Shown piece after piece: positions 23,266-43,329 of a stretch of 64,000 nt of DNA (position 1 is its first letter; each line of letters starts with the position of its first letter). The DNA is from Escherichia phage ECO340P2. The stretch lies in the sequence record OP172792; one strand, written 5' to 3'. Under the pieces are notes generated by a model. That model did no database searches. It had not been told where the DNA came from and was given only the letters and a program-made list of their open reading frames with translations. A program made the position numbers and the translations under genes.

Positions 23266-25938
23266 TTATTTATAACCCGAAGGAATATTATTATAATCAG
23301 AAAGTTTTGTGCAATACCTGAATAGGTAACTATTAGCTACTCCGCCTAATGTATTTGTTAATGTTGTTCCTGTTCCTGTAAGATTTGTGCATCCACTAAA
23401 GAAAGAAGATAATGCTCCACGTTTACCACAAACAGTTAACCCTGGGTTGTCATTAAAGATTTTATTAAAATCTGTAAGTGCTAAACAACCTTGGAATGTA
23501 GCTGTTAAAGAGGTCACTTTCGTTGGAATATTATCAAACATTCCTGCTGGAACTTCTGCAAGAGAGGTGCAATCTTTAAAGGTGTAAGAATATCTTGTAA
23601 CTTTTGATAGATTCTTAAATAAATCTGAAGGAATAGATGTTAAAGATGTACAACCTTCAAACGTGCTTGACATTGTTGTCATTGAAGGAAATAAAGCATC
23701 ACTGAATAATCCTTCAGGGATAGCTGTCAAACTTGTGCAGCCAGAGAAGATACCGCTTATAGATGTTCCGGTGTAAGATGTGTTACTAAAACAATCAGAA
23801 GTTATTCGTCTTAAGTTAGCACAACCTTTTAAGAATTGTGAGGCTGGGCTTGTAGAATAACCAATTCTGTTGCCGCCCCATAATTCTAAAAGATTTGGAT
23901 TTGCTTCCATAGACACATCAACACTATTCACTACTGAAGCACTTGCAAATTCAATAGCCAGTCTATATTCTCCTGCTGGATAACTATCCACTGTAGAGAA
24001 AGCTTTATTTCTAAATATTACTTTATTTGAAGGTATTACAACGTCATCCACTTTAACTACAAAGTTAGCTGGTGTGACAGTACCCGATAAAATTGGGAAC
24101 GTAATTGCCCCATCTGCCGAGTGGTTGAAATATCCGTTTAGAACCGTTAAACTACTACTCGGAGATGGAGCTAACTCCTTTCCCGCAACAGCATTCACCG
24201 TTAAATAAGAACTATCGGAAGCGGTAACAACACCTTGATACGTAGCTGTGCAACCAATCCTACAACCACCATCACCAACACCAGTTATTACACCAGTTGT
24301 AGGATCTACTGTAGCAACACTAGAATCTGTAGTTGTATATTCAACAACCATGCCAGGTAAGCTTGCTGCCCCTGTTGGCGTTATTTCTGCTACCATTGTT
24401 TGTGTTGTTCCTACATCCATCGCAGATAAGCTAGGGGTGTAAACACTCAATGTTGAAGCATATCCTCCAGAGGTATCTGATAAAGTTGTTCCTTCAGCGT
24501 TTAAGGCTGTCATACCTGCATCAAAACCACCTTCTGCATGGAAAGTCATTAAACCAGTAGATGATATTGTCATGTTTGCAGGGGCAGAAGAAGTGTATTT
24601 AATATTGAAAAGTTTACCTCCTTCTGGGCTAACAGAATGTGTCAACTGTTTAGTTCCACCTACAATACAAACTCCTAAAGAATCTGTAGTTAAGCTAGTT
24701 GCCAGCACATCTCCCGTAATCACAGAGCTTGCTATCGGTGTGAATTTATTATAATTTAGACCACTGTTGAACAGATACGAGGCTTTCCCATCTTTCCAAA
24801 TACCGGAATAATACATATCCCCGTTATAAACGAAAAAGGTTCCTTGATAACCTAATTGGTTAGTAATATCCATATTCAGCGTATGAACGCTTGTGAGCTT
24901 GTTTATATCCCAAGAACCCACTCCTTCAGGTTTAACTGGTTTTCCCACTTGGAGTGGATCTCCGCTCGCAGAATCATACCCCAAACCTAAGTTTGCAGTG
25001 TAGTTCTTACCAATAGCCCACAAGGAATTGTTGATCCCAACGAAAAAAGAGTGGCGGCTTGGTGGAAATTTCCATGTTGAGAAACCTGCTGCAAAGGTAT
25101 CCAGTTTAGTGTAGGTTGTTTCTGTATTAGACCTGACATATAAGTAGTTTACCGTGCCCGTACCACCAGAGGTGTCTCCTACAACTATTGTCTGGGAAAC
25201 TGTATTGATGTAATCTTTGACATACACTGTTTCAGTAGTGGATATCGTGGCATTGACAAAAGCGGTTGTTGTGTTATTATTACCTGCTAAACCTTTACTA
25301 GCTCCACAAACACGCAAGGTTCCCACATTGTTGACATAAGAGCATTGGTTGTAACCTGCATCAAAAGCAACTGCTGAACTTGTTATCTGACGAGGAGTAG
25401 AAACTTCGTTAGTAGTGCTTGCACCTAAACTACCTACTGTGTTTTGACCCGATCCATAAAGAACACCGCTATTCATTAACCAGAGAGTATTGTTATACCC
25501 TCCTTTAACCTCTTTAAGATTGGCTAAAGAAATAGTCCCTGTTATTACAGATGGAAAGCTGGTCCAAGTAGTTACACATGCATCCGTACCACCTGCTGCT
25601 ATAGATCCTACCAACCCTGCTGTCAATCCTGAATATTGCCATCCCCCACTGTTAGTTTTAATAACAAAACAACGATCTGCGGTAAACACATCCGCTACTA
25701 CAGTAGAAGCTAAGTGGAAATTATTGAATCGTGCACTACGAGTTCCATCTGCAATCTCACCAAAGAGGTTTGCGCCTTGAGTAAACAATCTACCATCATT
25801 AAGCAAAATTGCTAAACTGTTGTTAGAATTACCAGCGTTATCTGGGTAATCTAAAGTGATTACTTTTTTAACAATACCTGCTGGCAGAGGAACGACACCA
25901 GTGCTGGTCATAATAGTAAATATTGGAATTGGAAACAT
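23266..25938 (-). CDS. Tail fibre/adhesin with C-terminal BspA-type leucine-rich repeats
   Basis: C-terminal tandem units F.GCTSLT.IP..LF ... FKDCTSLAEVP ... FQGCLALT ... FSGCTNLT fit BspA-type LRRs; last gene of the late strand. Confidence 0.5.
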   Translation of the reverse strand: MFPIPIFTIMTSTGVVPLPAGIVKKVITLDYPDNAGNSNNSLAILLNDGRLFTQGANLFGEIADGTRSARFNNFHLASTVVADVFTADRCFVIKTNSGGWQYSGLTAGLVGSIAAGGTDACVTTWTSFPSVITGTISLANLKEVKGGYNNTLWLMNSGVLYGSGQNTVGSLGASTTNEVSTPRQITSSAVAFDAGYNQCSYVNNVGTLRVCGASKGLAGNNNTTTAFVNATISTTETVYVKDYINTVSQTIVVGDTSGGTGTVNYLYVRSNTETTYTKLDTFAAGFSTWKFPPSRHSFFVGINNSLWAIGKNYTANLGLGYDSASGDPLQVGKPVKPEGVGSWDINKLTSVHTLNMDITNQLGYQGTFFVYNGDMYYSGIWKDGKASYLFNSGLNYNKFTPIASSVITGDVLATSLTTDSLGVCIVGGTKQLTHSVSPEGGKLFNIKYTSSAPANMTISSTGLMTFHAEGGFDAGMTALNAEGTTLSDTSGGYASTLSVYTPSLSAMDVGTTQTMVAEITPTGAASLPGMVVEYTTTDSSVATVDPTTGVITGVGDGGCRIGCTATYQGVVTASDSSYLTVNAVAGKELAPSPSSSLTVLNGYFNHSADGAITFPILSGTVTPANFVVKVDDVVIPSNKVIFRNKAFSTVDSYPAGEYRLAIEFASASVVNSVDVSMEANPNLLELWGGNRIGYSTSPASQFLKGCANLRRITSDCFSNTSYTGTSISGIFSGCTSLTAIPEGLFSDALFPSMTTMSSTFEGCTSLTSIPSDLFKNLSKVTRYSYTFKDCTSLAEVPAGMFDNIPTKVTSLTATFQGCLALTDFNKIFNDNPGLTVCGKRGALSSFFSGCTNLTGTGTTLTNTLGGVANSYLFRYCTKLSDYNNIPSGYK

Positions 25939-25949
25939 TTAAACCCTCC

Positions 25950-25975
25950 ATAAAAAGAAAGCCCCTTTCGGGGCT
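25950..25975 (-). terminator. Rho-independent terminator after collagen-like fibre gene
   Basis: Minus strand: AGCCCC-GAAA-GGGGCT followed by TTCTTTTTAT. Confidence 0.7.
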
Positions 25976-25979
25976 TCTG

Positions 25980-28004
25980 TTATCGTGTTACAACAACCAT
26001 GTCCACGACATTACCCACACCAGGATACGTTAATTGCAAAATTGTTACTGCGTTAGCAGTAGTTGCTATTTCTGTATCATTCAGTGCTCCATAAGACGCA
26101 TCTAGTGTAACCGTGTGTCCCGTTGTATCTTGAATCAAATAAATCATTGCTGAAAACGCTTTAGGCTTTGTAGAGCCAGTGACACCAGGCCATGCTCCAA
26201 CTGTCAGAGCGTCAGTTACTGTAACAACATACATATTGGAAGTTCCAGAAGGAGTCCAAGATGCTCCAGAGTTGGCAGTAGTTGTTTCAAGTTCCATGAA
26301 ACCTGCTGTAACTTTAGTTGGTGTTATAGCTTCTGTAGGATCTGATCCTGATATTTCGATCCAGTTTCCATCAGAACGACCATACGTCAAGCCATCTTGA
26401 GGGGCTTCTGGTATACTAGGAAGAGTGCCTATAAGTATCCACGTAGAAGAATCTGTTTTCTTAAACACTGCTCCAGTGTTAGTATTGAAGGCGTAATCAT
26501 TGATAACACCGTCTCCTGCGACTGGATTAGTTGTTGCTACAAACCACTGTGCGCCGTCCTTACCGTTGGTCCCATCAGTACCATTGGTTCCGTTTGTTCC
26601 AGGATCACCCTTATCTCCTTTATCCCCTTTTTCACCTTTGTCACCTTTAATACTTCCCATGTCAACAAAAGATGCGGAATTAGTGTCTTGATCGTAGGTA
26701 TAGATGTAAAGATTACTAGTGTCTTCAGTTAAATAGGCATCACCATAGTTATTATAAACAGGGAGAGCTTCACTGTTCGGAACATGACCTTTAGCTGTAA
26801 TTGATGTTCCTCCAAGACTGCCAACATTCATCCATTCCGTAGCATCTTGAATCCAAACATACAAATCATTATTAATTTTATATGCATCACCTACTTCTCC
26901 AGTAGGAGGAAGTTCAGCTTCACTGTTCAGAACCCCGATAATCTCTAAGCCTGATCCTGTTGCACCCACTGGTCCTTGTGGACCTAGTTCACCTTGTGGA
27001 CCTCGCTCTCCTTGATCACCCTTGTCTCCTTTTGGACCTTTAAGTGAGGCAATAAAATCTACTTCTGTCCCTTCATTACCAGCATCCAGCCAACTTTGAT
27101 ATGCAGATTTCCCTTCATCTCCATCTGTTCCATCAAGACCGTCTTTACCTGCCTCACCTTGTGGACCTTGAGGACCAACAATATTACCCATGTTGACCCA
27201 AGCTGTCCCATTAGAGACATAAAGATTACCATTGATAGAATAAGCTTGGCTTACGTTTTCAGAGTTAGGTTGTGGTAAGTTACTTGTAGAAGGCAAATCC
27301 CCACGATAATCAAAACCGTTGGCGTTAACACCAGGTGCTCCCTGTGGCCCTGTAGGACCAACATCACCTTTATCACCTTTTATAGAGGTAAGAAAATCAT
27401 AAACAGATCCTGTATTACCATCTGCCAACCATACCTCGTAAGCTGATTTACCTTCTGGCCCAAGAGAAGAAATAAGTTTCCAAACAGAACCATCCCAAGC
27501 GTAGATTACATCACCTACGATATAACCATCCCCTGCAACGTTACCTGTGGATGGTAGTTCACTAGTGCTTGCTAATGATCCTTTAATATTAAGTTGAGCA
27601 CCAGTATCCCCTTTCAAAGAAGCAAGCCATTGTGCTTCTGTTCCAACAAAACCATTATCAAGTGCGATCTGATAAGCCGATTTACCAGCTTCAGGTATTG
27701 TTTCCGACAGATCATCAATTTGTTGCTGCATTGCCGTAAACTTGGCATTGATAATTGCTATATCATCAGCGGTCCCAACACTTTGCCATGCAAGGGAAGA
27801 AATACCACCTGTGGTGGCTGGCGTAGAGTTTGCTGGAACTACTTTAGGAAAAGTTCCTTTCCATTGGTAATAATTCCCTTCTGCTGCTAACAGCAAAACT
27901 TCACGGGAATTACGTAATGTAAAACCTGCCTCAAAGCTGCGACGTTTTCGATAAGTAGCTTCTACCAGATCGGCTATCGCACTATTAGGTCTTGTTAAAT
28001 TCAT
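25980..28004 (-). CDS. Tail fibre with interrupted collagen-like (G-X-Y) segments and phage tail-fibre repeats
   Basis: Four G-X-Y runs (e.g. GDKGEKGDKGDKGDPGTNGTNGTDGTNGKDG) alternate with three GKSAY...L..G..GT...(W/F)L.S(L/I)KG modules. Confidence 0.65.
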   Translation of the reverse strand: MNLTRPNSAIADLVEATYRKRRSFEAGFTLRNSREVLLLAAEGNYYQWKGTFPKVVPANSTPATTGGISSLAWQSVGTADDIAIINAKFTAMQQQIDDLSETIPEAGKSAYQIALDNGFVGTEAQWLASLKGDTGAQLNIKGSLASTSELPSTGNVAGDGYIVGDVIYAWDGSVWKLISSLGPEGKSAYEVWLADGNTGSVYDFLTSIKGDKGDVGPTGPQGAPGVNANGFDYRGDLPSTSNLPQPNSENVSQAYSINGNLYVSNGTAWVNMGNIVGPQGPQGEAGKDGLDGTDGDEGKSAYQSWLDAGNEGTEVDFIASLKGPKGDKGDQGERGPQGELGPQGPVGATGSGLEIIGVLNSEAELPPTGEVGDAYKINNDLYVWIQDATEWMNVGSLGGTSITAKGHVPNSEALPVYNNYGDAYLTEDTSNLYIYTYDQDTNSASFVDMGSIKGDKGEKGDKGDKGDPGTNGTNGTDGTNGKDGAQWFVATTNPVAGDGVINDYAFNTNTGAVFKKTDSSTWILIGTLPSIPEAPQDGLTYGRSDGNWIEISGSDPTEAITPTKVTAGFMELETTTANSGASWTPSGTSNMYVVTVTDALTVGAWPGVTGSTKPKAFSAMIYLIQDTTGHTVTLDASYGALNDTEIATTANAVTILQLTYPGVGNVVDMVVVTR

Positions 28005-28066: not shown

Positions 28067-31000
28067 TTAGGTTGTTGGCACATCTACTACTGGCGTTGGG
28101 CGAATAACCGCAGTATTACCTACAGAAACATTACTGGAATCATTAGGTATGGTTTTAATTCTAACTCCAGCACTTGTAGGCGTTACAATGGGATCTGCAA
28201 TGTCTATTTTAACTGGGTTAGTCCACGTATCATTATCTTGATAAGGTGCACGAGTAATAACTGTGTCCAAATCTGCTCCACCTACGCCAGCACCAGGAAT
28301 ACGGATACGTGTCCCTGCTGACAGAGGGTAATGATACAACCAAGAAGCATTTGTTGCTGTCCCGTTAGGAGTCAAGTTCTGTGTCAGGAAGGTATCTCCT
28401 GCTTGTGTAGCTCGAATACCGAAAGCTGGGATATCTGGAATATATGCCCCACTTGTTGTTACAAGGAAGAACGTATTATCCGCCTTGACTATCATATCAC
28501 CTTTGTCAAACTCTTTCCCTGTTGGGAAATGCATTCCATCAATGTTTCGACTAGGATTAGGCTCTAAGTAATAAACTTTGCCCGTTGTCCCTACAATAGC
28601 TCCAATACCACCTGCGATATTGGTATACATATTAGCTTCAACATTACAGTTGACACGATGAATATCCGAGTAACGGCAACGGCTCCACTGTGGACGACCA
28701 GTAACCATCGTCTTGCCATCTGGGTAACAGTTTACGTTAACCATTTCAAGAACAGATTTTTCTCTACGGAAGAATCCATCATAAAATGTCCCTGGACCAG
28801 ATTCAGGTTGACCAACACAATCGAAGATATTACAGGTGATGTTAGACATTGAAAGCCAAGAAGCTATACCGAACAACTGCAATGCAGCGCAACGAATATT
28901 TTCAAAGCTAACTCTGTTTTCATAACCTGGCCCAGCGGAAACTCCCGCAAAAACACGCCCAGTTTTGGTGTGAATGTTACGAACAGAATAGTTAAAGCAT
29001 GGGTTTGAAGGTCTACCCTGTGCCGGAACTACCGGATTACCCTCTTCGTCCAGAACTGCGTTAGTTCCCCACTCCAAATAAATCATACGGATATTACTTG
29101 CAAGTGTGCTACCGTCTGTTTTAGGCTCTCCATAAACACCGTCAATCGTAAAATCTTTACTTCCATACATTACAACTGCGCCAGTTGCCAAACCTGTCCC
29201 AACAGATACAGTCTGGTCTGGATCGCCATGAATGTTTTCGATAGAGATATTACGACCAACTTCTACGTGGACAATCTGACGACAACGTTTTGCAAAAACG
29301 TTACGAATTGTAATATTCTTGCAATATTGATCATCAGGGATTCCGTAACCATATGGTCCTTTACCAGCTACACCGATACCGATACCCCAGTTGGACAGAG
29401 GAATAGGAGCGTTAGTCCCATCGATATTAGACAGGTAAATATTCTCAATCACACAACCATCGTCATAATGTTTATTGATGACGTTCAGTTCTATTGCATC
29501 ACCTTGCATGTCCATGAAGGTAAGGTTACGGAAGACACCACGTGTTACTGGTTCCCCTGTTCCTTGTTGAAGGATGCCGTACAACCCGTTTTTAAAAGTA
29601 CAGTTATCAATTTCAAAAGTACCTGATATTGGGTTGCCTTGGAATACCAAGCTACCAACTTGACCTGGGCGAGGAGCACCGTCCCACAAACAATCGAACA
29701 TGCGCACAGCACCACCCCAATACATAACACGAGAGTTACGGAAAGTTGTGCCTTCTACTGTAGCATTCTGCACACGATAGTCGCGTTGACCACGGAACAC
29801 ACCACCACGCAAAGTGATATCTTGAATATCAAAAGAGCTTGTCGTGAAAGTCATATCGCAACCGTAAGCATCGAGAATCTTACTTTTCGAAGCTTTTGCT
29901 GCTAACAGTGCCGCCTGGAAAGCTGCTTCTGGTGTGGTATAGGTAGTTGTATTGTTAGCAAATTCGGACAAGTAAACAACATCGAATAAATCGTTGTATG
30001 TTCCACCACGAGGGGTTAACAGTCCTTCTGTATTAGTTAAAACCCATGCATTTGGACCTAATCCACCGCTTGTCTCCAATGTATCGGAGGCCAAAATACT
30101 TTTTGGTAAACTTCCAGCCCAACGATAACGACCAGCACCACGTCCAATCGTCTGATTTTTAGCTGTCAGAGTTACGTTGTTACCAAAGCTTGTAGGCAAA
30201 TGAACAAACTGTCCACGTTCAACAGCTAGTGCAGAAAGATCTACAGACCCCCCAGAATAAGTCATTACTCCAGAAACAGACAAGGATGTTAAAGTTCCTG
30301 TGATGTTAGGAGGTAATGTGTAGGAAGACTGTGCTACTGGATCATACAGAGCTTTAATCCCTGTTAACGATTGACCTGCTGTTGCGTAAGCCACCTCATC
30401 ATCTAACAAACCATATTTACGAGCAATAGTTTGCAGAGGGACTTTATCCATGCTTTCTGTTAGTTCTTCCGTTTTTGTTTCTAAACTAACAAGACGGTTC
30501 TCTAGATTAGGATCTGTATCTGCTGAAGCTACGATTTTACCAATATAAGCAAAAAGCTTGTTTGGCAGTCCTGTTGCAGGATCGTGTCCCAAAGGTTCAG
30601 ATAAGATGATCTTACTATCTTCTATACGGAAAGCTTCCCCCAGAACCTGAATAACACCATTGATCGTAACAATAGCACTATCAAAGATGTAAGGAGGACT
30701 AATTACTGTTTCATAACCAGTTGCACCAGAATATACCCAAGGGGTGACTTCTGTTGCCAATTGTTCTGTCTTCAGTCCCCACAATACCCAGTTGTTATCT
30801 CCTACTGGAGTCCCTTGCATAGGGATAGGGTTAACCAATGTAGCGTTAGGAGCATAGTAATAACCGCTCAATACTCCATTCTGGAAATAACGAAGTTGGT
30901 TAAAAACCGTTTCATTTGTGCCTTGCGCCCAATCCAATGGGCTTTTAAAGAAAAAGTTATCAACAAGGGCTTTTCTCAGGGTTGGTATCAATCCTGATTC

Positions 31001-31120
31001 TGTCTCAATACTTTCTGTCGCACTTCCATTAATAACATCATGAAGTTGATTGGACGAGAAAATAACCAGATCTACGCCCTGTTCAAGAGACGTTGCTGGA
31101 TACGTTGGGAATGTTGCCAT
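28067..31120 (-). CDS. Tailspike with right-handed parallel beta-helix (pectate-lyase-like) domain; putative depolymerase
   Basis: 1017 aa; central region has beta-helix-type N/G/I-rich rungs (NITIRNVFAKRCRQIVHVEVGRNISIENIHGD); depolymerase activity is inferred. Confidence 0.5.
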   Translation of the reverse strand: MATFPTYPATSLEQGVDLVIFSSNQLHDVINGSATESIETESGLIPTLRKALVDNFFFKSPLDWAQGTNETVFNQLRYFQNGVLSGYYYAPNATLVNPIPMQGTPVGDNNWVLWGLKTEQLATEVTPWVYSGATGYETVISPPYIFDSAIVTINGVIQVLGEAFRIEDSKIILSEPLGHDPATGLPNKLFAYIGKIVASADTDPNLENRLVSLETKTEELTESMDKVPLQTIARKYGLLDDEVAYATAGQSLTGIKALYDPVAQSSYTLPPNITGTLTSLSVSGVMTYSGGSVDLSALAVERGQFVHLPTSFGNNVTLTAKNQTIGRGAGRYRWAGSLPKSILASDTLETSGGLGPNAWVLTNTEGLLTPRGGTYNDLFDVVYLSEFANNTTTYTTPEAAFQAALLAAKASKSKILDAYGCDMTFTTSSFDIQDITLRGGVFRGQRDYRVQNATVEGTTFRNSRVMYWGGAVRMFDCLWDGAPRPGQVGSLVFQGNPISGTFEIDNCTFKNGLYGILQQGTGEPVTRGVFRNLTFMDMQGDAIELNVINKHYDDGCVIENIYLSNIDGTNAPIPLSNWGIGIGVAGKGPYGYGIPDDQYCKNITIRNVFAKRCRQIVHVEVGRNISIENIHGDPDQTVSVGTGLATGAVVMYGSKDFTIDGVYGEPKTDGSTLASNIRMIYLEWGTNAVLDEEGNPVVPAQGRPSNPCFNYSVRNIHTKTGRVFAGVSAGPGYENRVSFENIRCAALQLFGIASWLSMSNITCNIFDCVGQPESGPGTFYDGFFRREKSVLEMVNVNCYPDGKTMVTGRPQWSRCRYSDIHRVNCNVEANMYTNIAGGIGAIVGTTGKVYYLEPNPSRNIDGMHFPTGKEFDKGDMIVKADNTFFLVTTSGAYIPDIPAFGIRATQAGDTFLTQNLTPNGTATNASWLYHYPLSAGTRIRIPGAGVGGADLDTVITRAPYQDNDTWTNPVKIDIADPIVTPTSAGVRIKTIPNDSSNVSVGNTAVIRPTPVVDVPTT

Positions 31121-31123
31121 TAA

Positions 31124-31459
31124 TTACCCCTTATTCTGTGTACGTTTAACTATGTCATCTAGCATCATTTGGATAGTCGCATTCTTGAGGTCCATAATCT
31201 TTTCAATTTTTTGCTCAAGAGTGTTATTATTTGCCATTAATGTAGAGTTAATTTGATTTAGCATCTGGGTAAGTTCGGCTTTAGTTGCATAAGTTGATTC
31301 AACAAAGACCAACTTCTTCTCTAGCTCTCGACTTTTCTCCTCCATTTCCTCAAGATCAGAGCCGAATTTATCCATTTTTTGTTTGAAAAAGAACCAGATG
31401 ACTCCGATTAAAGGGATTATTGCATCCTTTGCAAGTCCCCATGCTTCTTGAAATTCCAT
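31124..31459 (-). CDS. Membrane-anchored coiled-coil protein (function unknown)
   Basis: N-terminal hydrophobic helix IIPLIGVIWFFF followed by a charged helical region. Confidence 0.4.
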   Translation of the reverse strand: MEFQEAWGLAKDAIIPLIGVIWFFFKQKMDKFGSDLEEMEEKSRELEKKLVFVESTYATKAELTQMLNQINSTLMANNNTLEQKIEKIMDLKNATIQMMLDDIVKRTQNKG

Positions 31460-33715: not shown

Positions 33716-33717
33716 TT

Positions 33718-35205
33718 TTACACTCCATACTCGTAAGAAATGTTATCAAGGTCAAAAGAAGGGACAACATTATAAGCAGGAACTATATTATTCTCTGTAT
33801 ATTTACTGTCATCCTCAGTATTAAGTTTAACATAAACACGAAGAGAAGTCAAGCGTCCAAAAGCAAGTGCTGCATAAATAACACCTTTGATTTGATCGTT
33901 CGTTACTGAAGAACCTAATTCAAAGTAAGCTTGCAGGTTTTGTAAAGCTTCTACAATGTTTTGTTTTTCTGTTCCACTTAAAGTTGTTCCGTTGACAGTT
34001 TGATAAACAAGTTTTACGGAATACGTAGCAGAAGCACCAGGAGAAAAACGAATAATTTCTTGTCCTCCGTCTTCCGTTGTAACAGTTATGTTGGTTGTTC
34101 CATGTGTCAAACTGTTGATTGGTTTAGTTTTGTAAATAACTTCAGCAACTTCTTCAGCACTTCCTCCATAAACTATAGTCTGGAAAGTCATAGCCGGAGC
34201 ATGTTCTTGATCATGTAATGTAGGGTTATCATAAATCTTCACCTTAGTAACACCATCTGTAAGTAGCAGAGCTTTCACAATAGCTGCTCGTGTCCCTGCG
34301 TTAGCTTCATCAACGTTGTCATTGAAACGAGAGCGGAATTCTGCGTCTGTCTCAACATCCCGACCAGGAGAAAATGAATAAAAGTTACCACTGTCAAGAT
34401 AACCTGTAAAGGTAGAAGATATCCCTGTAATAGACTCCACGCCAACAGGGTTGTATCCTTTCTCTGCTGCAACTACCGGAATCTCACTCCACTTGGTTCC
34501 AACCGGAACACTAGCATAAAATTTAATAGGAGTTACCAGTCCCACTGGAGTATCACTAGTTAAAGAAGTAAAACCAATTGATAAGTTACCTGAATCAGAA
34601 AATACAAGACTACGATCAGCTTCTGTTAAATTTGCCTTGATAAAAGTTTCAAGATCGGTTATAAATGTAGAAGAACCAGGTGCAAGTGTTTTACTGTTTA
34701 GTCCTCCATCTACCGCACTTTGTGCATAAAAAGTAATATTTGGAACACCTGTAGCAGTTGCATTAGCACGAGAGATTTGATAAGCTGCAATCTTAGCATT
34801 CAACATAGTTGGTGTGCTAACATAGTAGTTCATATCACTATCAGAGTTGAAGTAAATATCCGTGCCTAGCTCATAAGTCCAAGCTGCTTTGTTATTGCTC
34901 TTAACATATGCATAACCTGTACTTGCTGCTGCCCCTGCTCGATAGAAACCGCGTTTAGAAAAGATTTCGTCAAGATAAATACCTTCTGCACCATCCAGTG
35001 TTTGAGTATTATAAACACCTTGCATACCTTCCCACAATGTGTAATCTGTGTATGCAATTATTCTAAACAGTTGCCCGATCACAGTATCTTCCGAAGTGGC
35101 TGCATCTGCACCAAATGTGTTTTTTACTGCTGTCATGTAGTTGTTTAAAACATCGTCAAAAGTCGGGATTACAAATCCCGCATCTGTCAAACCATATTCG
35201 TCCAT
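33718..35205 (-). CDS. Baseplate J-like protein (tentative)
   Basis: Assigned by size (495 aa) and position upstream of the I-like and fibre genes. Confidence 0.4.
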   Translation of the reverse strand: MDEYGLTDAGFVIPTFDDVLNNYMTAVKNTFGADAATSEDTVIGQLFRIIAYTDYTLWEGMQGVYNTQTLDGAEGIYLDEIFSKRGFYRAGAAASTGYAYVKSNNKAAWTYELGTDIYFNSDSDMNYYVSTPTMLNAKIAAYQISRANATATGVPNITFYAQSAVDGGLNSKTLAPGSSTFITDLETFIKANLTEADRSLVFSDSGNLSIGFTSLTSDTPVGLVTPIKFYASVPVGTKWSEIPVVAAEKGYNPVGVESITGISSTFTGYLDSGNFYSFSPGRDVETDAEFRSRFNDNVDEANAGTRAAIVKALLLTDGVTKVKIYDNPTLHDQEHAPAMTFQTIVYGGSAEEVAEVIYKTKPINSLTHGTTNITVTTEDGGQEIIRFSPGASATYSVKLVYQTVNGTTLSGTEKQNIVEALQNLQAYFELGSSVTNDQIKGVIYAALAFGRLTSLRVYVKLNTEDDSKYTENNIVPAYNVVPSFDLDNISYEYGV

Positions 35206-35468
35206 TAGTCATCCTCTTTAGTAGATTGTGATCTGCCCCAACGTAAATCAATAAGATTTTTCATGAGGCGAGAAGGGGTTATCATGAAAACAAAAGCCCA
35301 ACCCATCCATTCAGGAATTTCTTTTTCTATTCCTAAAAAGATAAACATGCCTGTCATAACAGACATGCCTACAGCGTTCCAGACTTTCGTAGAGCTTACC
35401 CCGTTGCCGGGGTAAGTGCAGAACATTCCGCGAATAAATTTTTTAAAACCGTTTTTCTCTTTAGCCAT
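35205..35468 (-). CDS. Small membrane protein
   Basis: ORF track; two hydrophobic segments. Confidence 0.4.
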   Translation of the reverse strand: MAKEKNGFKKFIRGMFCTYPGNGVSSTKVWNAVGMSVMTGMFIFLGIEKEIPEWMGWAFVFMITPSRLMKNLIDLRWGRSQSTKEDD

Positions 35469-35516: not shown

Positions 35517-38282
35517 TTATTTACTTTCCAGGGTTGCAAGTCTTTCTTCAAGAGCTTTTAACTTTTTACGTTGATAAGCCATCTCAATAAAAAACATTTG
35601 GTCAGCGCGGATACCCCATCGCGATCCTGCTGGAATTATTTCGATAGTTTCTACAACATCTTCTACGATTGTTACTGGATTACCTTCTTCATCAATTACA
35701 ACATTCCCTTCATCATCAAATAAAGGGATTTCTTTTTGTCCCGTAACAACACTATCGTACATAGCAGGGTATTCATCATAACACAGAAAAGCATACTTAC
35801 AATCAGTGCTATTTTCATCCATTAAACCATAATTAATCAGAATATCTCTTACATCTTGAGCTATAACACCAAAATGAATACGCGCAGAATCTCCTTTCTC
35901 CGCGACAGCACTAAGCCATTGGTAAGAGATTACATGAATATCTTCCCATGCTTTCAGTAAAATATCTTCAATCTCTGTAGGTTTAGTTTTTAATGTTCCA
36001 TCCGAAGTATTAATGGTTCCTGTAGATGCGTACACTTCTGACCATCTGTTAGACGCACCGCCTAATGCAACTTGTCCATCTAAATACGGCATGAAATTAT
36101 TTTGGGTATATGCTCCTCCTGGGGCATATAAAACTGCTCTGTTTGGATACGTATGGTTTGAACCATATAGTTGTAATAGCGATCCATCCGTAACGTAAGG
36201 AGTTTCTCCTCCACATAGGATTAGTCGCTGTTCAGAAGGATTTTTTATTGGGACATTTTTTGCAACAACCCCATAATCACCGTCTAATTTTATTCTAACG
36301 GCAGATTGTTGCGTCCCATCATGCTCAAGGCCAGTAACTGTTAAAGAGTATACTTGTACATCATTATCAAAAGTTACAGGGGCTGAGACATGCCTTACCC
36401 CATCTGTACCCATAGATACAGGCAACGTACGGTTTGGCGTAGCTCCATATTTGAAATCACGTGATACAAAATCATGTTCGGTAATCTTTAGTCTATAACT
36501 ATATAAATCGGCTGGATGACCATCATGCTTGTACCATAATTTTTTACTATTATCTCCAATAGACCAAGGAGATAAGAAATCTTCGCCTCCAAAGATATAA
36601 TATAACCAACCATCTTTAACACATACCGAACCAACACCACATGCAGAATTAACAATATGCCCTTGATACATCTGATCAGTGATATTAAACCATTGAACAT
36701 CGGATAAAGATGTAGGCCATGAAGATACATTAATCTTGCACATAAACGTTCGAGGATACGTGCCTTTATATCTATTATCTAGTTCTTCTCCTTCCCATTC
36801 TCCGAATGAACGTTCTGTACCAAAGATATAAAGGTAGTTACCAACTTTTGCAAATGGTAAGTTTGTATGATGAACGTTGTTAGGGAATCTTAAGTAATTC
36901 CAGTTTTCTCCAAGGTCGGTACTCATTGCTAATGTAGAACCAGCAGCAGAAGTTGAAGTACCTCTAGTAGTTAAATATAAAATTCCATCATAATATTTAA
37001 TGCAGGGTTCTGCTGCATTGTCAGCATATTCTTGACTAATTGTTCTACGAGTAAAAGAACTTGGGTCAGAGTAAGCATTATTGAAATACAAAATACCTAA
37101 TCTTCTTGGGGAAACATCACCATTGTGATAACCAACAGCAAAAGTGTAATTATCATCATCTATAACTGTAAAACTATGGGTTTCTGTAACACATAAATCT
37201 GCATTAGTAGAATAGGCAACATCTGGTAATTCTGTAATTTCCCAAGGGCTATCCCAGAAACGTGTTCCAAAATGCCAAGTAGTTCCTGTATTATCTATAT
37301 TAGATGTGGCAGCACTCGCTAATGTAACAGTAAATGTATCCTTGTTAATTACAGATGCAACAGTCATATTTCCAGATACGCCAGTTGCACCTGAATTGGA
37401 AAAGTTAACAGCATCTCCAACTTTAAGACCATGCTTTTCTAAAACAATTGTCGCTGTAGTAGACCCAGAACTAATTGTTATGCCTCCAGTTGGCCTTCTA
37501 TAATAAGGCATTGGACGTGACCAAAGTTCTGCTTTCTTCAATCGCATGTTAGATAAGTAACGGGTTTCGATCACTGCATATAAGCGATTACCACATACAC
37601 CCATACTCATACAATGATAGTTAACTTTGTTTGCTGAAGAGGCATTATAATCAGGATGAATTGGAGTTAACCATTCTGGCATAGACCAAGTTTGTCCATC
37701 ATCTCCTGATTTAACCCACGCTACATGGAGGTTTTGTACACCATGACGTTCGCCAGCCATAAATGGTGCATATATAACATTGTCATAAACAAACGTCTTA
37801 TCTTGCGTCCAAGCATTGTAAAATGGTGTATCCGTAATTTTTGTCAGATTTCCATCGAAGAAACCCGCAGATACGTAAGTAAGGGGTTGTCCAACAATAC
37901 GCTCATAAACAAAAGCGGCGTTTTTAAACTTGCTTATATCTGGTAGTGTTGTAACCTTGAAAGTGAGATTACGCCCATCAACAATCCATCCATCAGGCAT
38001 AGCAGCAAGAAGCTGTGTTATGGCATTAGTATCGTCTGTTGCTCCGTCACCTACTGCTCCCCATCCTCTAGGATCACCTTCATCTCTCCAACGTGACATT
38101 TGAAGTTCTGGATACTTGGTAGCACCATCTGTATCTTTCAACTGGGTGGCTAAAACCACCCCAGTGTCAGTAAGAAAGTTGGAAACTGTGCTTTTAACAG
38201 TCTTATCAGGTTGGTCTAAAACCAGGTAATCAGAAGCATTAACTTTTGATGTTTCGGGTAAATTAGTAATTGTAGTTGACAT
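35517..38282 (-). CDS. Tail spike/fibre with C-terminal intramolecular-chaperone (peptidase S74-like) domain
   Basis: C-terminal GGASNRWSEVYASTGTINTSDG...ARIHFGVIAQDVRDIL resembles the autoproteolytic chaperone of endosialidase/L-shaped fibre proteins. Confidence 0.6.
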   Translation of the reverse strand: MSTTITNLPETSKVNASDYLVLDQPDKTVKSTVSNFLTDTGVVLATQLKDTDGATKYPELQMSRWRDEGDPRGWGAVGDGATDDTNAITQLLAAMPDGWIVDGRNLTFKVTTLPDISKFKNAAFVYERIVGQPLTYVSAGFFDGNLTKITDTPFYNAWTQDKTFVYDNVIYAPFMAGERHGVQNLHVAWVKSGDDGQTWSMPEWLTPIHPDYNASSANKVNYHCMSMGVCGNRLYAVIETRYLSNMRLKKAELWSRPMPYYRRPTGGITISSGSTTATIVLEKHGLKVGDAVNFSNSGATGVSGNMTVASVINKDTFTVTLASAATSNIDNTGTTWHFGTRFWDSPWEITELPDVAYSTNADLCVTETHSFTVIDDDNYTFAVGYHNGDVSPRRLGILYFNNAYSDPSSFTRRTISQEYADNAAEPCIKYYDGILYLTTRGTSTSAAGSTLAMSTDLGENWNYLRFPNNVHHTNLPFAKVGNYLYIFGTERSFGEWEGEELDNRYKGTYPRTFMCKINVSSWPTSLSDVQWFNITDQMYQGHIVNSACGVGSVCVKDGWLYYIFGGEDFLSPWSIGDNSKKLWYKHDGHPADLYSYRLKITEHDFVSRDFKYGATPNRTLPVSMGTDGVRHVSAPVTFDNDVQVYSLTVTGLEHDGTQQSAVRIKLDGDYGVVAKNVPIKNPSEQRLILCGGETPYVTDGSLLQLYGSNHTYPNRAVLYAPGGAYTQNNFMPYLDGQVALGGASNRWSEVYASTGTINTSDGTLKTKPTEIEDILLKAWEDIHVISYQWLSAVAEKGDSARIHFGVIAQDVRDILINYGLMDENSTDCKYAFLCYDEYPAMYDSVVTGQKEIPLFDDEGNVVIDEEGNPVTIVEDVVETIEIIPAGSRWGIRADQMFFIEMAYQRKKLKALEERLATLESK

Positions 38283-38290: not shown

Positions 38291-40444
38291 CTATATATAA
38301 AATTTTTGTGTTGTTACTAAATCTTCTCCAGATTTAGTAGCTAATGTAATTCCACTTATGGTAGCAATCTCAACATTTGCTTGTTTAAGATTGATATCTT
38401 GCAAATAACAATTCAAAGGCACATTACCCATATAGAAAACTTGGGATTGAGAGTTAACTACCGTAATGGAATCGTGCATTATTTGAGGATAGGCCCATAT
38501 ATATTGTGTAAGTCCGTTAAACTTGTTGGCGTTCAACACTATATTACCTATAATCATTTTCCAAAGATACGTGCGGTAGTTTGATTCAGGATCGAAGCCA
38601 TACAAAGGCGCAAGAGTAGCATCTGGAACAAAACCTGAAAGATAGTGAATATCAGAATATTCAAAACCTAATTTTTCATGTGGTATGGTAATTGCATCAA
38701 ATGCTTTCATCATCTTACCTTCCAGAAGCCAGTCGTAACACTCTGAACAGTAAAAATCAAAAGCTTCAGGAATGTAGTAATCAGACGGAAAGTTAACTTT
38801 CTCCATCAAACCGTTGCCGATAATCGATGGTAAGAACGGAAGCAATGTTACTTTAGCTCCTGGGTAAGATGCTCTAGTATCTGTTGCAAACTTTGTAACT
38901 CTTAATCCTAGTTTACGAGACAAAAACGCATAATATTCGTCAAACGGCGTTCCTGTTTTATAATTATCTATTGTTCCTGCATCTTGTGCAAATAAGCCAG
39001 TTTCTGTGTTGAATGCCAGTTTGGTAGTGTAATCGTATATGCAAGGCATTTTACTTGCTGTATTATACCACCACCAAGGTTCACCAATTTGAATGACGAC
39101 TGGAATATTGTTAGCTTGAGAAATAGATGCTATTTTGTTAATAACATTTTGCAAATATTCCATGCCTTCGTCAATAGTTGGAGACAACACGTAACTAGGA
39201 GGCTTATACCCTGTTGCTGCAAGAGCATCGTTCCAATCATGCTGGACCCATTCAACAGGACAAACTGTGCTCATCAACTCAAAACTTAAAGAGTTCATTA
39301 TTGTGTAACCCTTCTCGTTCGCTATAGAATGGAAACTATTTAGCCAAGCTTCTGTAGCTGGATTCAGGAAGACAGATCTATTTAAAGCCCAAGATGTTCC
39401 GTTCCATGAGAACTCATAATAGTGAGACATTCCGTTGTAATGGTTAATCATTCCACGATAACCTAGTGCATATGTATTATAAATAACTCTCTCTGGAGTC
39501 AGGTTATACATATCATCATAAGATGTGCACATGCGAATATCATGTTCAGGCTGGACAAGGTTGCTGACTTTCATCATACTATAACCAGAGGTAGGTTCAA
39601 GAAGAGTGAAAGTAAACCAAGCCTCTTGACTGCCAATAGGTACAACCTCTTCTATTTCTTCATACCTTGCTGTAATCAAAGAGAAGAAAATATTATCTAC
39701 AGCACTCATATCCAAAGGAATATCATTATTAGGGCCAGAAAAGATATTACCAAAATCTAACTTTATTGTGGCTGTTTTACCATCTTCTGAAATATCTGAA
39801 GCGTAGAATCCTAAACTGACATAATGAACACTTTTATCCAGGAGAGTTACAGTCAAAGTCGGCACCAAAGGTTCTTCTTTAAAACCTGGCATGTTTTGAC
39901 TAATTTCCATTTTAAACCAAAGTTTCTCTGAACTTAAATCTGTGTGAGGCAAATACCCAACACCTTTATGATCATATTTGTCAACTGTACTCCAGATAAC
40001 CCCTGCCAAACCTGCTGTTGTTCTGTTTACAAATCTTGCAGTAAAAGAGTCTCCATGAGATACAATAGAACAACTTTCCGTTGCTTGAGAATCTATTGTC
40101 CAATACATAGGAGAGAACATTTTAACGTCTTTTGTAGTCCAAGTTATTGGAGTAGTATTTTCTTGGATAGTAGTTATAATACAATTGATGGTTGTTTCAA
40201 CCATCATGTTATTTTGACTAATCCCTGAAACTTGGAGGGAGAAGTTAAGATCTATTGAGTTCTTTGGTCGTTCAAATACTTCAACCACAATAGTAGCAGA
40301 ATCAGCATCATCAGGGAACACAAGTGTTCCCGATTTTGCAATATAATCTCTACCAGCGACTGCTGTTCCGTCAACAGTCGTGTAGTTAAATGAACTCGCA
40401 TTTACTCTCTTGTCTCGCGTGACAGTAAATATAGCTTGTTTCAT
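38291..40444 (-). CDS. Large tail-associated protein with N-terminal Calx-beta-like domain
   Basis: N-terminal VNASSFNYTTVDGTAVAGRDYIAKSGTLVFPDDADSATIVVEVFERP fits the Calx-beta signature; remainder unassigned. Confidence 0.45.
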   Translation of the reverse strand: MKQAIFTVTRDKRVNASSFNYTTVDGTAVAGRDYIAKSGTLVFPDDADSATIVVEVFERPKNSIDLNFSLQVSGISQNNMMVETTINCIITTIQENTTPITWTTKDVKMFSPMYWTIDSQATESCSIVSHGDSFTARFVNRTTAGLAGVIWSTVDKYDHKGVGYLPHTDLSSEKLWFKMEISQNMPGFKEEPLVPTLTVTLLDKSVHYVSLGFYASDISEDGKTATIKLDFGNIFSGPNNDIPLDMSAVDNIFFSLITARYEEIEEVVPIGSQEAWFTFTLLEPTSGYSMMKVSNLVQPEHDIRMCTSYDDMYNLTPERVIYNTYALGYRGMINHYNGMSHYYEFSWNGTSWALNRSVFLNPATEAWLNSFHSIANEKGYTIMNSLSFELMSTVCPVEWVQHDWNDALAATGYKPPSYVLSPTIDEGMEYLQNVINKIASISQANNIPVVIQIGEPWWWYNTASKMPCIYDYTTKLAFNTETGLFAQDAGTIDNYKTGTPFDEYYAFLSRKLGLRVTKFATDTRASYPGAKVTLLPFLPSIIGNGLMEKVNFPSDYYIPEAFDFYCSECYDWLLEGKMMKAFDAITIPHEKLGFEYSDIHYLSGFVPDATLAPLYGFDPESNYRTYLWKMIIGNIVLNANKFNGLTQYIWAYPQIMHDSITVVNSQSQVFYMGNVPLNCYLQDINLKQANVEIATISGITLATKSGEDLVTTQKFYI

Positions 40445-40452: not shown

Positions 40453-43329
40453 TTACTCGGTAACGTCCACACTAATGTTTGCCATTGTCAAAACAGTAAG
40501 TGCAGGAATATTGCTCGAATCCAAAACAGGTAATGCATTTTGGGGATTAAGTTTTTTGTATAAAGCATACAACCCAAAACCACGTAACAACTCTCCAGCG
40601 TGGAAGCCAAAGAAGACTCCGTTATCACTGTCTGGTCTAGGAGCAGCACTCCAACAACCATTCATAACGTGATTAGGACCAAGAACAATATAGTTTTCCT
40701 GAATAAGTTCAAAACAGCGGTCTGCTACTATTTTAATGTTAGGGATTTCTGAATCATATCCAGCCATCCCCATTATAGCACATCCCGCCATAAAGAGCGC
40801 AGACATGTGACTTGTAAAGTCATCTACAGGCGCAGCCACTTCTCCGTTGGGATAAAATATTGTTGGTGTTCTTCCTTCGTTGTTATCTTGGAACCACTTC
40901 AGGTAGTTGATCCAGTTTTTACAAACTGTTAAAAGTTTTTCAGGAACTTCGGCTCCTCGTCGCTTTAGTTCGTATACCGTATGACACGCACAGAAGAATG
41001 CTCGTGCTTCATAACCATCCCAAGCTTTATCGTTCCAATGATACATTGTGAACTCATTTTTGTTTCCATATTTATGAGCATCCCAACGATCCCAAACATA
41101 AGCTTGTGCCATTGGCCCAGGCATTACAGGGGCAAACTTATTATAAAACCACATTTGTGAATCATATAAAAAGTCTATACTGTTGTTCATACGAACCCAG
41201 TCAATATCTCTCCCTTTAAAACAATATAAGGATGGGTATTGATAACCTGGGTAAGGAATACCACGCCAACCGTCATATAATGCTGTGTTAGGATCACTAA
41301 TATTGGAAAATGGAATGATTCCTGGAGTATAATTCAAACTGTCAAGTTTGTAGTCCAGTATTGTACAATCTCCAAGTTTTGCTGTATAAGGATTTTCAGA
41401 TGAAACTGTAACCCTGAAATACATTGTGTAATCATCACCAGCGGCTGAAGAATACAAAGATGGGATATCGTTAACACAATAAAAATCGATTGCCCCTGTC
41501 AAGCCATTTGCAGGTTCAGAATCCAATGCAATGTTGATCTGATCAACAGCAGTCAGGTTTATTGACGAAGGTTTTGTCTCTGTGTCGTTATGATTGGGTT
41601 GCCAAGTGCTTAATTTGAAATCAGCAGGACTTAAAGCTTTAGTAACCCATGTAGAATTTGTTTTTTCTAACATGGCCCACCATCTCCAACCTGCGGAATC
41701 CGTAATAGTGATGTTAAAATCATCTGCGTATGAACGATATGTAATAGATTTTAAATTGGCTGTTTTAGTTGGTGTTAACCAAAACCCAACAGTAAAACCA
41801 CCATCTGAATCCATATTAGCAGAAACTATCTGATCACTATTTGTCCCAGCAATACCAGTTGCATATTTATATTGTATCACAGTATTGCTTCCCCAGTCAA
41901 CAATGATTCTAGGTTCAGCAATAATATATACACCGCCTCCAGGAGGTTCAGTGCGCATAAAACTGGATAAAGGTATATCCATCTTAGTCATATTAGCTGC
42001 ACCAAGAGGTAAGCCACAACGATATGTAACTGTATCTGTTTCACTCTTAGTTTTGCTTAATTCTAACTCTGGACGGAAAAGAACACCTTCCCCTGCATCA
42101 TCTACACCTTGAAACTCAATACGAAGTTTTGAATTCTGATCCACTCTGAACCAAACTGCCTGTTGTTCTAGAGTTGTTTGTGCTGAAACATCTTGGCGAA
42201 TTACTGTGTATCCTAATTCGTCACGAGAATATTTAGGTATTGCTGTAGATGGGTATGAGTAATCATACGAGATACCATCTGTAAAAGGAATTATTGCTGT
42301 CGTAGATCTACGGAAGAATTTATCAAACATATCTATGTTTGAGTAGTCTTGACACAACAATAAAGAAGATTGCCAGCAAAGCCAGTATTTTCTCTCTCCT
42401 GTGATCTGATACATCAAGTAGTTTGCATCACACCACCACGTTTCAGCATCGGAAGCATTATCTTGATAACCTAACTCTACCGGAACGTTTACAGGACGGT
42501 TATGCCACATCTCATTACGCTTAAGAAGATACCCACCGTGTTCTACAGGATTGCATGTAGCGTAGTTGAATTTATAGTCCCCGTTCACAGAAGCATTTTT
42601 AAGTTGCACTGTTCCATATTCTGCGAAGCTGTGCCCTGTAGATAAAATGTTACCGTCCCAATCAACTTTACGTCCTAGACGATCTATAATCCATTCAACG
42701 TCCCACTGATCTCCATATTCTTTCCAGTTGGTTGAACCATCTGGGTTAGTTGCATAAACTGTTGCGTTAACGGAGTTCCAACCAAGATTGCCATTGAAAG
42801 CAAACCAAGCTTTATCTAAGTATTCCCCCCAATGCGGTGCACCTTTAGGAATAACAGTCCTTCCGTTAATCCAAGTCATCATGCTACCTTTGAACCCGCC
42901 GTGCGTAGGATACCCATCATCTGTGAGAGGGTAATGTGCTAAACGTGGTTCTTTACCATTGATGATCCAGTTGGGACGATATTTAGCTGGAGGATCAGGG
43001 ATAGGTTGGCCCCCGAAGAAGTGATCTATATAGGCTTGCCAATACTTCTCGGCAGATTCAAGATATTTTTTATCCCCTGTAGCCAAATATGCATAAGCAA
43101 AACCAGTGATAAGCACAGATTGACCTTCGGTAGTAGCGTCACCGTTTGGTTGCCCTTCCTGCGCTGTCCAGTTAATAAAGTGTCTGTTGTTCGCCAATAC
43201 GTTTTGTGGGTTGATAATGTAATGCTGAACCGTAGGATCTATGGTAAGCCCAGTATTTCTTTCCAAAAACTGAACCAACCCTTCAATCAACTGAAACGTG
43301 TTGTCAATATTGTGCTTAACTCTTGACAT
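40453..43329 (-). CDS. Large tail-associated protein, possible glycan-degrading enzyme (tentative)
   Basis: 958 aa, W/Y-rich and enzyme-like; fold not determined. Confidence 0.35.
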   Translation of the reverse strand: MSRVKHNIDNTFQLIEGLVQFLERNTGLTIDPTVQHYIINPQNVLANNRHFINWTAQEGQPNGDATTEGQSVLITGFAYAYLATGDKKYLESAEKYWQAYIDHFFGGQPIPDPPAKYRPNWIINGKEPRLAHYPLTDDGYPTHGGFKGSMMTWINGRTVIPKGAPHWGEYLDKAWFAFNGNLGWNSVNATVYATNPDGSTNWKEYGDQWDVEWIIDRLGRKVDWDGNILSTGHSFAEYGTVQLKNASVNGDYKFNYATCNPVEHGGYLLKRNEMWHNRPVNVPVELGYQDNASDAETWWCDANYLMYQITGERKYWLCWQSSLLLCQDYSNIDMFDKFFRRSTTAIIPFTDGISYDYSYPSTAIPKYSRDELGYTVIRQDVSAQTTLEQQAVWFRVDQNSKLRIEFQGVDDAGEGVLFRPELELSKTKSETDTVTYRCGLPLGAANMTKMDIPLSSFMRTEPPGGGVYIIAEPRIIVDWGSNTVIQYKYATGIAGTNSDQIVSANMDSDGGFTVGFWLTPTKTANLKSITYRSYADDFNITITDSAGWRWWAMLEKTNSTWVTKALSPADFKLSTWQPNHNDTETKPSSINLTAVDQINIALDSEPANGLTGAIDFYCVNDIPSLYSSAAGDDYTMYFRVTVSSENPYTAKLGDCTILDYKLDSLNYTPGIIPFSNISDPNTALYDGWRGIPYPGYQYPSLYCFKGRDIDWVRMNNSIDFLYDSQMWFYNKFAPVMPGPMAQAYVWDRWDAHKYGNKNEFTMYHWNDKAWDGYEARAFFCACHTVYELKRRGAEVPEKLLTVCKNWINYLKWFQDNNEGRTPTIFYPNGEVAAPVDDFTSHMSALFMAGCAIMGMAGYDSEIPNIKIVADRCFELIQENYIVLGPNHVMNGCWSAAPRPDSDNGVFFGFHAGELLRGFGLYALYKKLNPQNALPVLDSSNIPALTVLTMANISVDVTE

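Follow-up and report, generated by a model that had tools for sequence, protein, structure and literature searches.

The region at positions 23266-43329 of Escherichia phage ECO340P2 (sequence record OP172792), studied here within a stretch of 64,000 nucleotides (nt) that we call the window, very probably represents the tail-fibre and baseplate module within the late operon of a Phapecoctavirus, encoding a multivalent host-adsorption apparatus of the phi92 type. On each feature open to computational testing, the locus belongs to the phi92/phAPEC8 module. An initial annotation, made from the letters alone, had read the region as a multi-receptor adsorption apparatus comprising at least seven fibre- or spike-like genes, and gene-for-gene orthology and synteny with phi92 support that reading. 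The list of open reading frames (ORFs) places all seven large genes exactly where they had been located, at the same lengths and all on the minus strand. The description of the arsenal as unusually large does not hold within the lineage, since it is standard equipment of the Stephanstirmvirinae and Vequintavirinae. The arsenal was thus correctly recognised but is already known for the lineage. The idea of a multi-fibre "Swiss army knife" was put forward in 2012 and has been taken up again several times (PMC5380687, PMC8594841, PMC13450770), with orthologous loci described in phAPEC8-like phages (PMC8594841). The tail-fibre gene set of Phapecoctavirus has also been catalogued, including TfpL (958 amino acids, aa), TfpM1 (890/891 aa) and TfpS1 (PMC12695924).

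The seven large genes and one chaperone gene are as follows.

23266-25938, minus strand: tail protein "TfpM1", 890 aa (Pfam RCC1 and Big_2; PHROG 11922)
25980-28004, minus strand: collagen-like tail fibre, 674 aa, homologue of phi92 gp151 (about 60% aa identity; Pfam, PHROG 15437)
28067-31120, minus strand: tailspike, 1017 aa, homologue of the phi92 colanidase gp150 (PDB 6e0v, PHROG 6117)
31469-32014, minus strand: tail fibre assembly chaperone (Tfa), 181 aa, in the gp148 position (Caudo_TAP)
32015-33076, minus strand: short tail fibre, 353 aa, homologue of phi92 gp147 (fibre III), Mu GpS-like (PHROG 4465, E = 6.5e-107)
35517-38282, minus strand: endosialidase tailspike (endo-N-acetylneuraminidase, phi92 gp143/EndoN92 type), 921 aa (Pfam, PDB 4hiz, identity to phi92)
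38291-40444, minus strand: homologue of phi92 gp142, 717 aa (76.6% identity to gp142; Pfam, PDB 9lc0)
40453-43329, minus strand: homologue of phi92 gp141, "TfpL", 958 aa (83% identity to gp141; AlphaFold2 model)

Relatives and synteny with phi92

When the 20-kb region was compared by megablast with 50,697 phage records, 61 of them covered at least 80% of it. The best DNA relative was MRostami-2023b (98.1% identity over 100% of the region), with ESCO5 and REC both at 96.9% over 100% and phAPEC8 at 97.9% over 95% of the region. The taxonomy lines place all four in the genus Phapecoctavirus, subfamily Stephanstirmvirinae. Gene order and lengths in these relatives are as here (890/891, 674, 1017, 353, 921, 717 and 958 aa), and point differences of 2-3% separate the region from the closest Phapecoctavirus genomes. 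ESCO5, REC, nepoznato and MRostami-2023b share with ECO340P2 both the endosialidase and the C-terminal leucine-rich repeat (LRR) cassette of the 890-aa protein.

Searches with tblastn and pairwise alignments identified 17 orthologous pairs in the same order as phi92 gp134-gp151. From the tape measure gene to gp151, phi92 (a Justusliebigvirus) is collinear with the region one-to-one, running through the tape measure, tube initiator, plug, hub, spike, sheath initiator, gp140 and onward. Amino acid identity between orthologues is mostly 60-87%, the exceptions being the endosialidase (97%), the body of the colanidase (about 33%) and Tfa (27.5%). All genes of the region lie on the minus strand and are joined mostly by very short spacers or 1-base overlaps, with longer spacers of 42-62 nt at only three junctions. 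Its edge at about 23 kb is the meeting point of a plus-strand replication block (DNA polymerase, single-stranded DNA-binding protein) and the minus-strand structural block, and the guanine-cytosine skew changes sign there. We also considered whether a chimeric assembly, or large ORFs lying together by chance, could account for the cluster. The probability of this is negligible: the same 20-kb arrangement in 61 independent records, the full synteny in phi92 and the tight packing on one strand, bar the three longer spacers, rule it out.

Endosialidase spike

The 921-aa protein had been described as an S74-chaperone spike. The S74 domain is present (Peptidase_S74, 48 bits against a cut-off of 22), but the description was incomplete, as the protein carries the full endosialidase domain set. 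Five Pfam models match above their cut-offs, namely End_N_terminal, End_beta_propel (E = 3.7e-213), End_beta_barrel, End_tail_spike and Peptidase_S74. Residues 75-759 align with the crystal structure of the phi92 endosialidase EndoN (PDB 4hiz) at 1572 bits, and the chaperone structure PDB 3gw6 matches with E = 1.7e-70. Given 97% identity to the characterised phi92 EndoN (PMC13450770), we infer that the protein would cleave polysialic acid.

The gene is 96.3% identical in nucleotides, and 97.1% in amino acids, to phi92 gp143 (13765-16521 of the phi92 sequence compared), whereas the 16 neighbouring orthologous genes each show 71-80% nt identity. Because the spike gene stands so far above all of its neighbours, the comparison indicates that the whole gene, including the N-terminal anchor, was recently transferred between the two genera. 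Only 13 phage records contain the endosialidase at high coverage; for ESCO5, a depolymerase 96% identical to phi92 EndoN has already been noted (PMC10269720). In Phapecoctavirus of the SF1-1 type, the slot holds a different spike body, and only the first ~125 aa are related (64% identity). The spike in this slot of Shigella phage SF1-1 (15275-17501 of the sequence compared) is annotated as Tail_spike_N and "Endo-alpha-sialidase", and a 70-aa ORF fragment adjoins it.

Colanidase spike, collagen-like fibre and short fibre

The 1017-aa protein had been called a beta-helix tailspike, and this holds through its match to the solved structure of the phi92 colanidase gp150 (PDB 6e0v, residues 426-1000, E = 1.5e-78), though the Pfam Beta_helix model falls below its threshold (16.1 against 25.9). 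It also matches PHROG 6117, "colanic acid degradation" (E = 6.8e-283), and gives partial WcaM matches in NCBIfam. Three parts can be distinguished: a gp150-like N-terminus (aa 1-215, 75% identity), a block resembling the tailspike proteins (TSPs) of phage CBA120 and including Tail_spike_N (about aa 226-400), and the colanidase body (about aa 426-1000). By comparison, phi92 gp150 is 213 aa shorter, lacks the inserted CBA120-TSP-like block and has a catalytic body only about 33% identical. The N-terminal domains of CBA120 TSP1, TSP3 and TSP4 match residues 226-399 with E-values of 1e-26 to 1e-29, and Tail_spike_N (TSP1/gp66 N-terminal) domains, which link the region to the branched tailspike complex TSP1-4 of the Ackermannviridae CBA120/Vi1, occur in the 674- and 1017-aa proteins. 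As in CBA120/Vi1, several enzymatic spikes would share one baseplate here. The anchoring domains are all that the two systems have in common, the baseplate, the spike bodies and the genome type being unrelated.

The 674-aa fibre carries a Tail_spike_N anchor at aa 12-77 (Pfam, E = 1.3e-19) and belongs to the tail fibre family PHROG 15437. Its collagen-like nature, already proposed, is borne out by a match to Collagen PF01391 above threshold (46.4 bits against 27.2, E = 3.3e-12) and by Gly-X-Y runs visible in the translation. The 353-aa fibre is 74.5% identical to gp147, over aa 1-267 only, and its C-terminal tip differs from that of phi92; in phi92, fibre III has been assigned to gp147 (PMC13450770), and the Mu GpS/GpU-like short-fibre locus has been described (PMC8594841). 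It had been predicted to be served by a Tfa, and an ORF with a Caudo_TAP domain (PF02413, 50.4 against 22.1, E = 3.3e-13) does lie directly downstream, abutting the fibre gene at 32015. The 181-aa Tfa is only 27.5% identical to phi92 gp148; judging from these alignments, Tfa and the short-fibre tip diverged from phi92 together. The tips of both fibres match one solved phage structure (PDB 9cuy/9mjn), but in two different chains, named "Short tail fiber" and "Putative tail fiber protein". In 9cuy, the former is matched by aa 286-353 of the 353-aa fibre (E = 5.7e-23), and aa 561-671 of the 674-aa fibre also match a fibre chain. These matches suggest receptor-binding tips common to another phage group.

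The 717- and 958-aa proteins

At the head of the 717-aa protein, the Calx-beta domain of the initial annotation was confirmed, with PF03160 at aa 4-82 scoring 42.2 bits against a gathering threshold of 27 and structures of NCX Calx-beta domains matching with E-values of about 1e-4. It is followed by two domains absent from the initial annotation, NCTSP_N (aa 107-292, 59 bits) and TIM-barrel_NCTSP (aa 299-658, 266.1 bits, E = 5.8e-79; cut-off 27). The latter two domains are shared with gp64 and gp65 of phage N4 (PDB 9lc0, 9yf4), which the protein matches with E = 2.9e-30 (9lc0_M, gp64) and E = 2.6e-12 (9lc0_I, sheath protein gp65). In the podovirus N4, the two proteins wrap the tail tube in a six-fold sheath, whereas here the module sits in the fibre cluster of a myovirus; compared with gp65, the 717-aa protein has an additional N-terminal Calx-beta domain and lacks most of the ten domains. 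The genome encodes a contractile-tail baseplate (sheath initiator, Baseplate_J wedge) and not a tail of the non-contractile kind around which such a sheath would form. The likeness to N4 is therefore one of domain, not of sheath architecture. The odd label "non-contractile tail sheath" in the ESCO5 annotation is explained by the NCTSP domains, because NCTSP_N and the TIM barrel are common to this protein and N4 gp64/gp65.

The 958-aa protein has no match in sequence searches of Pfam, NCBIfam or PDB. An AlphaFold2 model built with 35 homologues (mean predicted local distance difference test score, pLDDT, 86.7) predicts an (alpha/alpha)6 glycoside-hydrolase-like toroid, formed by N- and C-terminal helices, with beta-sandwich insertions at about aa 350-690. 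The modelled toroid resembles those of GH8, GH76, GH88 and GH105, and a structure-based search was informative. Its earlier description as enzyme-like is in keeping with this predicted hydrolase-like fold, which also agrees with the label "glycosidase" attributed by PMC5380687 to Schwarzer et al. 2012. The family contains invariant Asp/Glu residues, for example D63, E67, D293 and E295 of the 958-aa protein. Its 307 homologues extend to distant phages and prophages at 42-55% identity, with hosts among the Enterobacteriaceae, Pseudomonas, Stenotrophomonas and marine bacteria, and in a comparison with three Phapecoctavirus genomes the protein shows 99.3-99.8% identity.

Both this protein and the 717-aa one keep 98.6-99.8% identity to their counterparts in phAPEC8 and SF1-1, and 96-99% to those in ESCO5. 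A metagenomic protein of 1557 aa (P0223) fuses a 958-like (alpha/alpha)6 part to NCTSP_N and the TIM barrel in a single polypeptide, without Calx-beta; other homologues, of about 1600 aa, carry PF21722 instead. Because of the fusion, the strong conservation and the presence of three fibre sets in phi92, the two proteins may be parts of one structure, and the evidence suggests that they act in one complex. We infer that they probably build the proximal arm of the L-shaped fibre bearing the exchangeable spike.

The 890-aa protein and its exchangeable cassette

The 890-aa protein comprises an RCC1-like beta-propeller (about aa 1-400), two immunoglobulin (Ig)-like Big_2 domains (about 410-585), a beta-sandwich (about 598-686) and a BspA/DUF285-type LRR solenoid (about 700-890). 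The C-terminal LRR had been noticed at the outset, but the N-terminal propeller and the Ig-like domains had been overlooked. Pfam RCC1 (23.8 bits, cut-off 21.7) and Big_2 (34.8 bits) both match, as do PHROG 11922 "tail protein" (E = 0) and, for the RCC1-like propeller, PHROG 4219 (E = 2.9e-32). For the BspA-type LRR, both Pfam models fall below their gathering thresholds in this protein, LRR_5 (PF13306) with 17.4 against 27.7 bits (E = 0.0043) and DUF285 (PF03382) with 15.4 against 25 bits (E = 0.016). The C-terminal 306 aa have 198 database homologues, many of them with precomputed PF13306/PF03382 matches; one of the homologues (P0007) is named as a BspA family LRR surface protein. The homologue alignment gives the consensus repeat FxGCTSLTSIPxGLFxxNxxVTxF, of which six to seven copies are readable in the 890-aa sequence. 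An AlphaFold2 model of the region (pLDDT 90.2) predicts an LRR solenoid, and its Foldseek matches are likewise LRR proteins, though weak ones (E = 0.013). Because of these homologues and the Cys-containing repeat consensus, we regard a C-terminal BspA-type LRR as supported despite the sub-threshold Pfam scores. The FxGCxSLxxIP repeat and the solenoid are common to the C-terminal ~190 aa and to the BspA-like/DUF285 LRR surface proteins of gut bacteria; unlike those proteins, this one has only about six to seven repeats, and they are joined to a phage tail protein rather than to a cell-surface anchor. Our literature search found no published description of a BspA-type LRR in TfpM1 or in the tail fibres of this lineage, while for another E. 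coli phage, Goslar, host-recognition proteins with predicted LRR domains have been mentioned.

The comparison with phAPEC8 marks the C-terminal 306 aa as a swappable cassette. In phAPEC8 gp086, aa 1-584 are 96.7% identical to the 890-aa protein, whereas the last 307 aa are unrelated and lack the LRR repeat motif. This alternative cassette (2076-3000 of the sequence compared; the window counterpart is 23266-24186) has no Pfam match at E <= 0.1. The LRR cassette itself is present in 35 records; genomes of the phAPEC8 type have a different one. Where ECO340P2 has this RCC1/Ig/LRR protein, phi92 has the 202-aa Ig-only gp152 and gp153; only aa 411-584 of the 890-aa protein match phi92, at 65.5% identity to gp152. 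There is no counterpart of gp153 within the window. In phi92, gp153 (26096-26983 of the phi92 sequence compared) is a 295-aa "tail protein" that follows gp152, and its sequence (IIWGQGENDA...) bears a by-eye likeness to motifs of the SGNH/sialate-O-acetylesterase type.

Two Logan contigs carry other forms of the gene. In SRR10359460 (6001-7191), from a related Phapecoctavirus, aa 1-74 of the collagen fibre (Tail_spike_N) are fused in frame to aa ~580-890 of the 890-aa protein, giving a 396-aa product; about 3.5 kb is deleted relative to 23266-28004 of the window, and both flanking genes are intact. The deletion could be genuine or an error of assembly. The fusion suggests that the LRR cassette is portable onto a Tail_spike_N anchor. 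In SRR17660019 (a 127.8-kb contig, 4592-6076), from a more distant phage, a 494-aa protein combines Ig-like domains with this LRR cassette (55% identity) but has no RCC1 propeller. Its gene takes the corresponding place, closing the structural block where it meets the replication module, and this propeller-free homologue points to the RCC1 propeller as an optional insertion.

Alternative readings

As a tally of genes, "at least seven" stands; as a tally of independent receptor binders, it is probably an over-count. Cryo-electron microscopy (cryo-EM) of phi92 resolved three fibre sets on the wedge of one baseplate, with fibre I inferred to be gp143 (PMC13450770), and the 958- and 717-aa proteins are conserved and in places fused. 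At least five receptor-binding proteins have been attributed to phi92 (PMC5380687). One could go further and propose that no more than three or four of the seven genuinely bind receptors, and that the proteins of 958 and 717 aa are purely structural scaffold whose enzyme-like folds are catalytically dead relics. We take this to be a credible alternative that we do not favour. It draws on the persistence of the 958-aa family across very different hosts, unlike variable receptor-binding proteins, on the near-identity of both proteins among phAPEC8, SF1-1 and ESCO5 while neighbouring spikes swap, on the natural fusion P0223 and on the three fibre sets of phi92. The TIM barrel of the 717-aa protein is, however, homologous to gp64/gp65, the receptor-binding sheath of N4 (PMC13434306). 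Homology to N4 Gp64 has already been reported for the Vequintavirinae and tied to dependence on enterobacterial common antigen (ECA), a conserved glycan common to N4 and the Vequintavirinae (PMC8594841), and conservation of the module may mean a conserved receptor. Many acidic residues are also invariant in the 958-aa family.

The 890-aa protein could likewise fall outside the set of bacterial-receptor fibres. It could be a monomeric decoration protein or adhesin for environmental or mucosal ligands, similar to Hoc or the C-terminus of lambda gpV, or a non-essential accessory; we consider this unlikely. Its conserved core of two Big_2 Ig-like domains is common to the small phi92 gp152, Ig-like domains are typical of phage decoration proteins, and the protein has no recognisable trimeric fibre anchor. 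The variant lacking aa 1 to ~580 of the protein and most of the collagen fibre still assembled as a phage contig, and the protein, TfpM1, is absent from Justusliebigvirus (PMC12695924). Against this, the gene is the last of the tail-fibre operon and belongs to PHROG 11922 "tail protein", and exchange of a C-terminal 306-aa cassette between close relatives is a signature of host-range determinants. In the deletion variant, moreover, the LRR cassette is in frame with a Tail_spike_N anchor, which would display it as a fibre tip. The behaviour of the cassette and the position in the operon favour a host-range function, while the Ig-like core and the missing trimeric anchor leave room for a decoration or adhesin role; incorporation into the virion is presumed from sequence. 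Our specific proposal is tentative and held with low confidence: the 890-aa protein may be a genus-specific, virion-borne adhesin or host-range determinant, built on a gp152-like Ig scaffold to which an RCC1 propeller and an exchangeable cassette have been added, with an LRR ligand that differs from the polysaccharides of the spikes and a cassette portable onto a Tail_spike_N anchor.

Several points weigh against the reading of the region as a phi92-type multivalent adsorption module. Every functional assignment in ECO340P2 rests on homology. Beyond its Ig-like core, the 890-aa protein has no phi92 counterpart, and to our knowledge an RCC1-like N-terminal propeller is not a known fibre anchor. 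The 958-aa protein is only 7-14% identical in sequence to (alpha/alpha)6 enzymes, and the identity of the (alpha/alpha)6 and TIM-barrel domains to known enzymes is about 10%. Lastly, the 2026 cryo-EM model of phi92 places neither gp141 nor gp142 and leaves fibre II without an assigned gene (PMC13450770); because of this, the arm or adaptor role of the 958- and 717-aa proteins is our own suggestion. Weighed together with the synteny and the domain matches, these points leave the phi92-type adsorption module as the reading we prefer.

Baseplate and small genes

The remaining genes of the region, and those bordering it on the baseplate side, also have phi92 orthologues.

31124-31459, minus strand: homologue of gp149, 111 aa, a lipoprotein by the annotation of relatives (ESCO5, phi92) (76% aa identity)
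33086-33715, minus strand: homologue of gp146, wedge, 209 aa (86.6% aa identity)
33718-35205, minus strand: homologue of gp145, Baseplate_J-like wedge, 495 aa (80% aa identity)
35205-35468, minus strand: homologue of gp144, 87 aa, a membrane protein by the annotation of relatives
43329-43802, minus strand: homologue of gp140, 157 aa, annotated as a small tail fibre protein (83% aa identity to phi92 gp140)
43802-44425, minus strand: homologue of gp139, sheath initiator, 207 aa (73% aa identity to phi92 gp139)
44427-45161: homologue of the central spike (the phi92 gene between gp137 and gp139)

The wedge pair (33086-35205) gives Pfam Baseplate_J and DUF2612 matches, and the roles of gp145/gp146 as wedge and of gp139 as sheath initiator in phi92 are taken from PMC13450770. 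The genes for the 921-, 717- and 958-aa proteins had been placed between W-like and J-like baseplate genes, and they do lie there, flanked by the gp139/gp140 homologues on one side and the Baseplate_J-like wedge gene on the other.

A model of adsorption and its implications

By orthology to phi92, the wedge proteins (homologues of gp145/gp146) would anchor several sets of six trimeric fibres, and an L-shaped fibre would carry the endosialidase spike at its tip. This spike would cut the polysialic acid capsule of K1/K92 strains, its S74 chaperone being released after folding, and the colanidase spike would digest colanic acid; in phi92, the enzymatic activities of both gp143 and gp150 have been demonstrated (PMC13450770, PMC5380687, PMC8594841). 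The short Mu GpS-like fibre, folded with its own Tfa, would then make stable contact at the lipopolysaccharide core or outer membrane, and its rearrangement would help to trigger sheath contraction, again by orthology to phi92 (PMC13450770). To this we add two suggestions of our own. The 958- and 717-aa proteins would most likely be the proximal arm or adaptor of the exchangeable-spike fibre, or its conserved-glycan-binding part, and the collagen-like fibre and the 890-aa protein may add further binding specificities, the latter through its exchangeable C-terminal cassette, here an LRR.

In such a system, host range may be tuned when entire spikes or C-terminal cassettes are exchanged on conserved N-terminal anchors. 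Conserved anchors with exchangeable distal binding or enzymatic parts fit the pattern of the module as seen in these comparisons, because the spike has been transferred and replaced, the LRR cassette has been replaced and the short-fibre tip appears to have diverged together with its Tfa.

The module can be annotated with confidence from its phi92 and Phapecoctavirus orthologues. The predicted targets would be E. coli strains that have a K1/K92 capsule and strains that make colanic acid. This matters for phage therapy against avian pathogenic and extraintestinal pathogenic E. coli, and is not new. The useful residue of the analysis is the predicted (alpha/alpha)6 hydrolase fold of the 958-aa protein, the fusion of 958- and 717-like proteins elsewhere and the swappable BspA-type LRR cassette of the 890-aa protein. 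The fusion bears on the assignment of fibre components in phi92.

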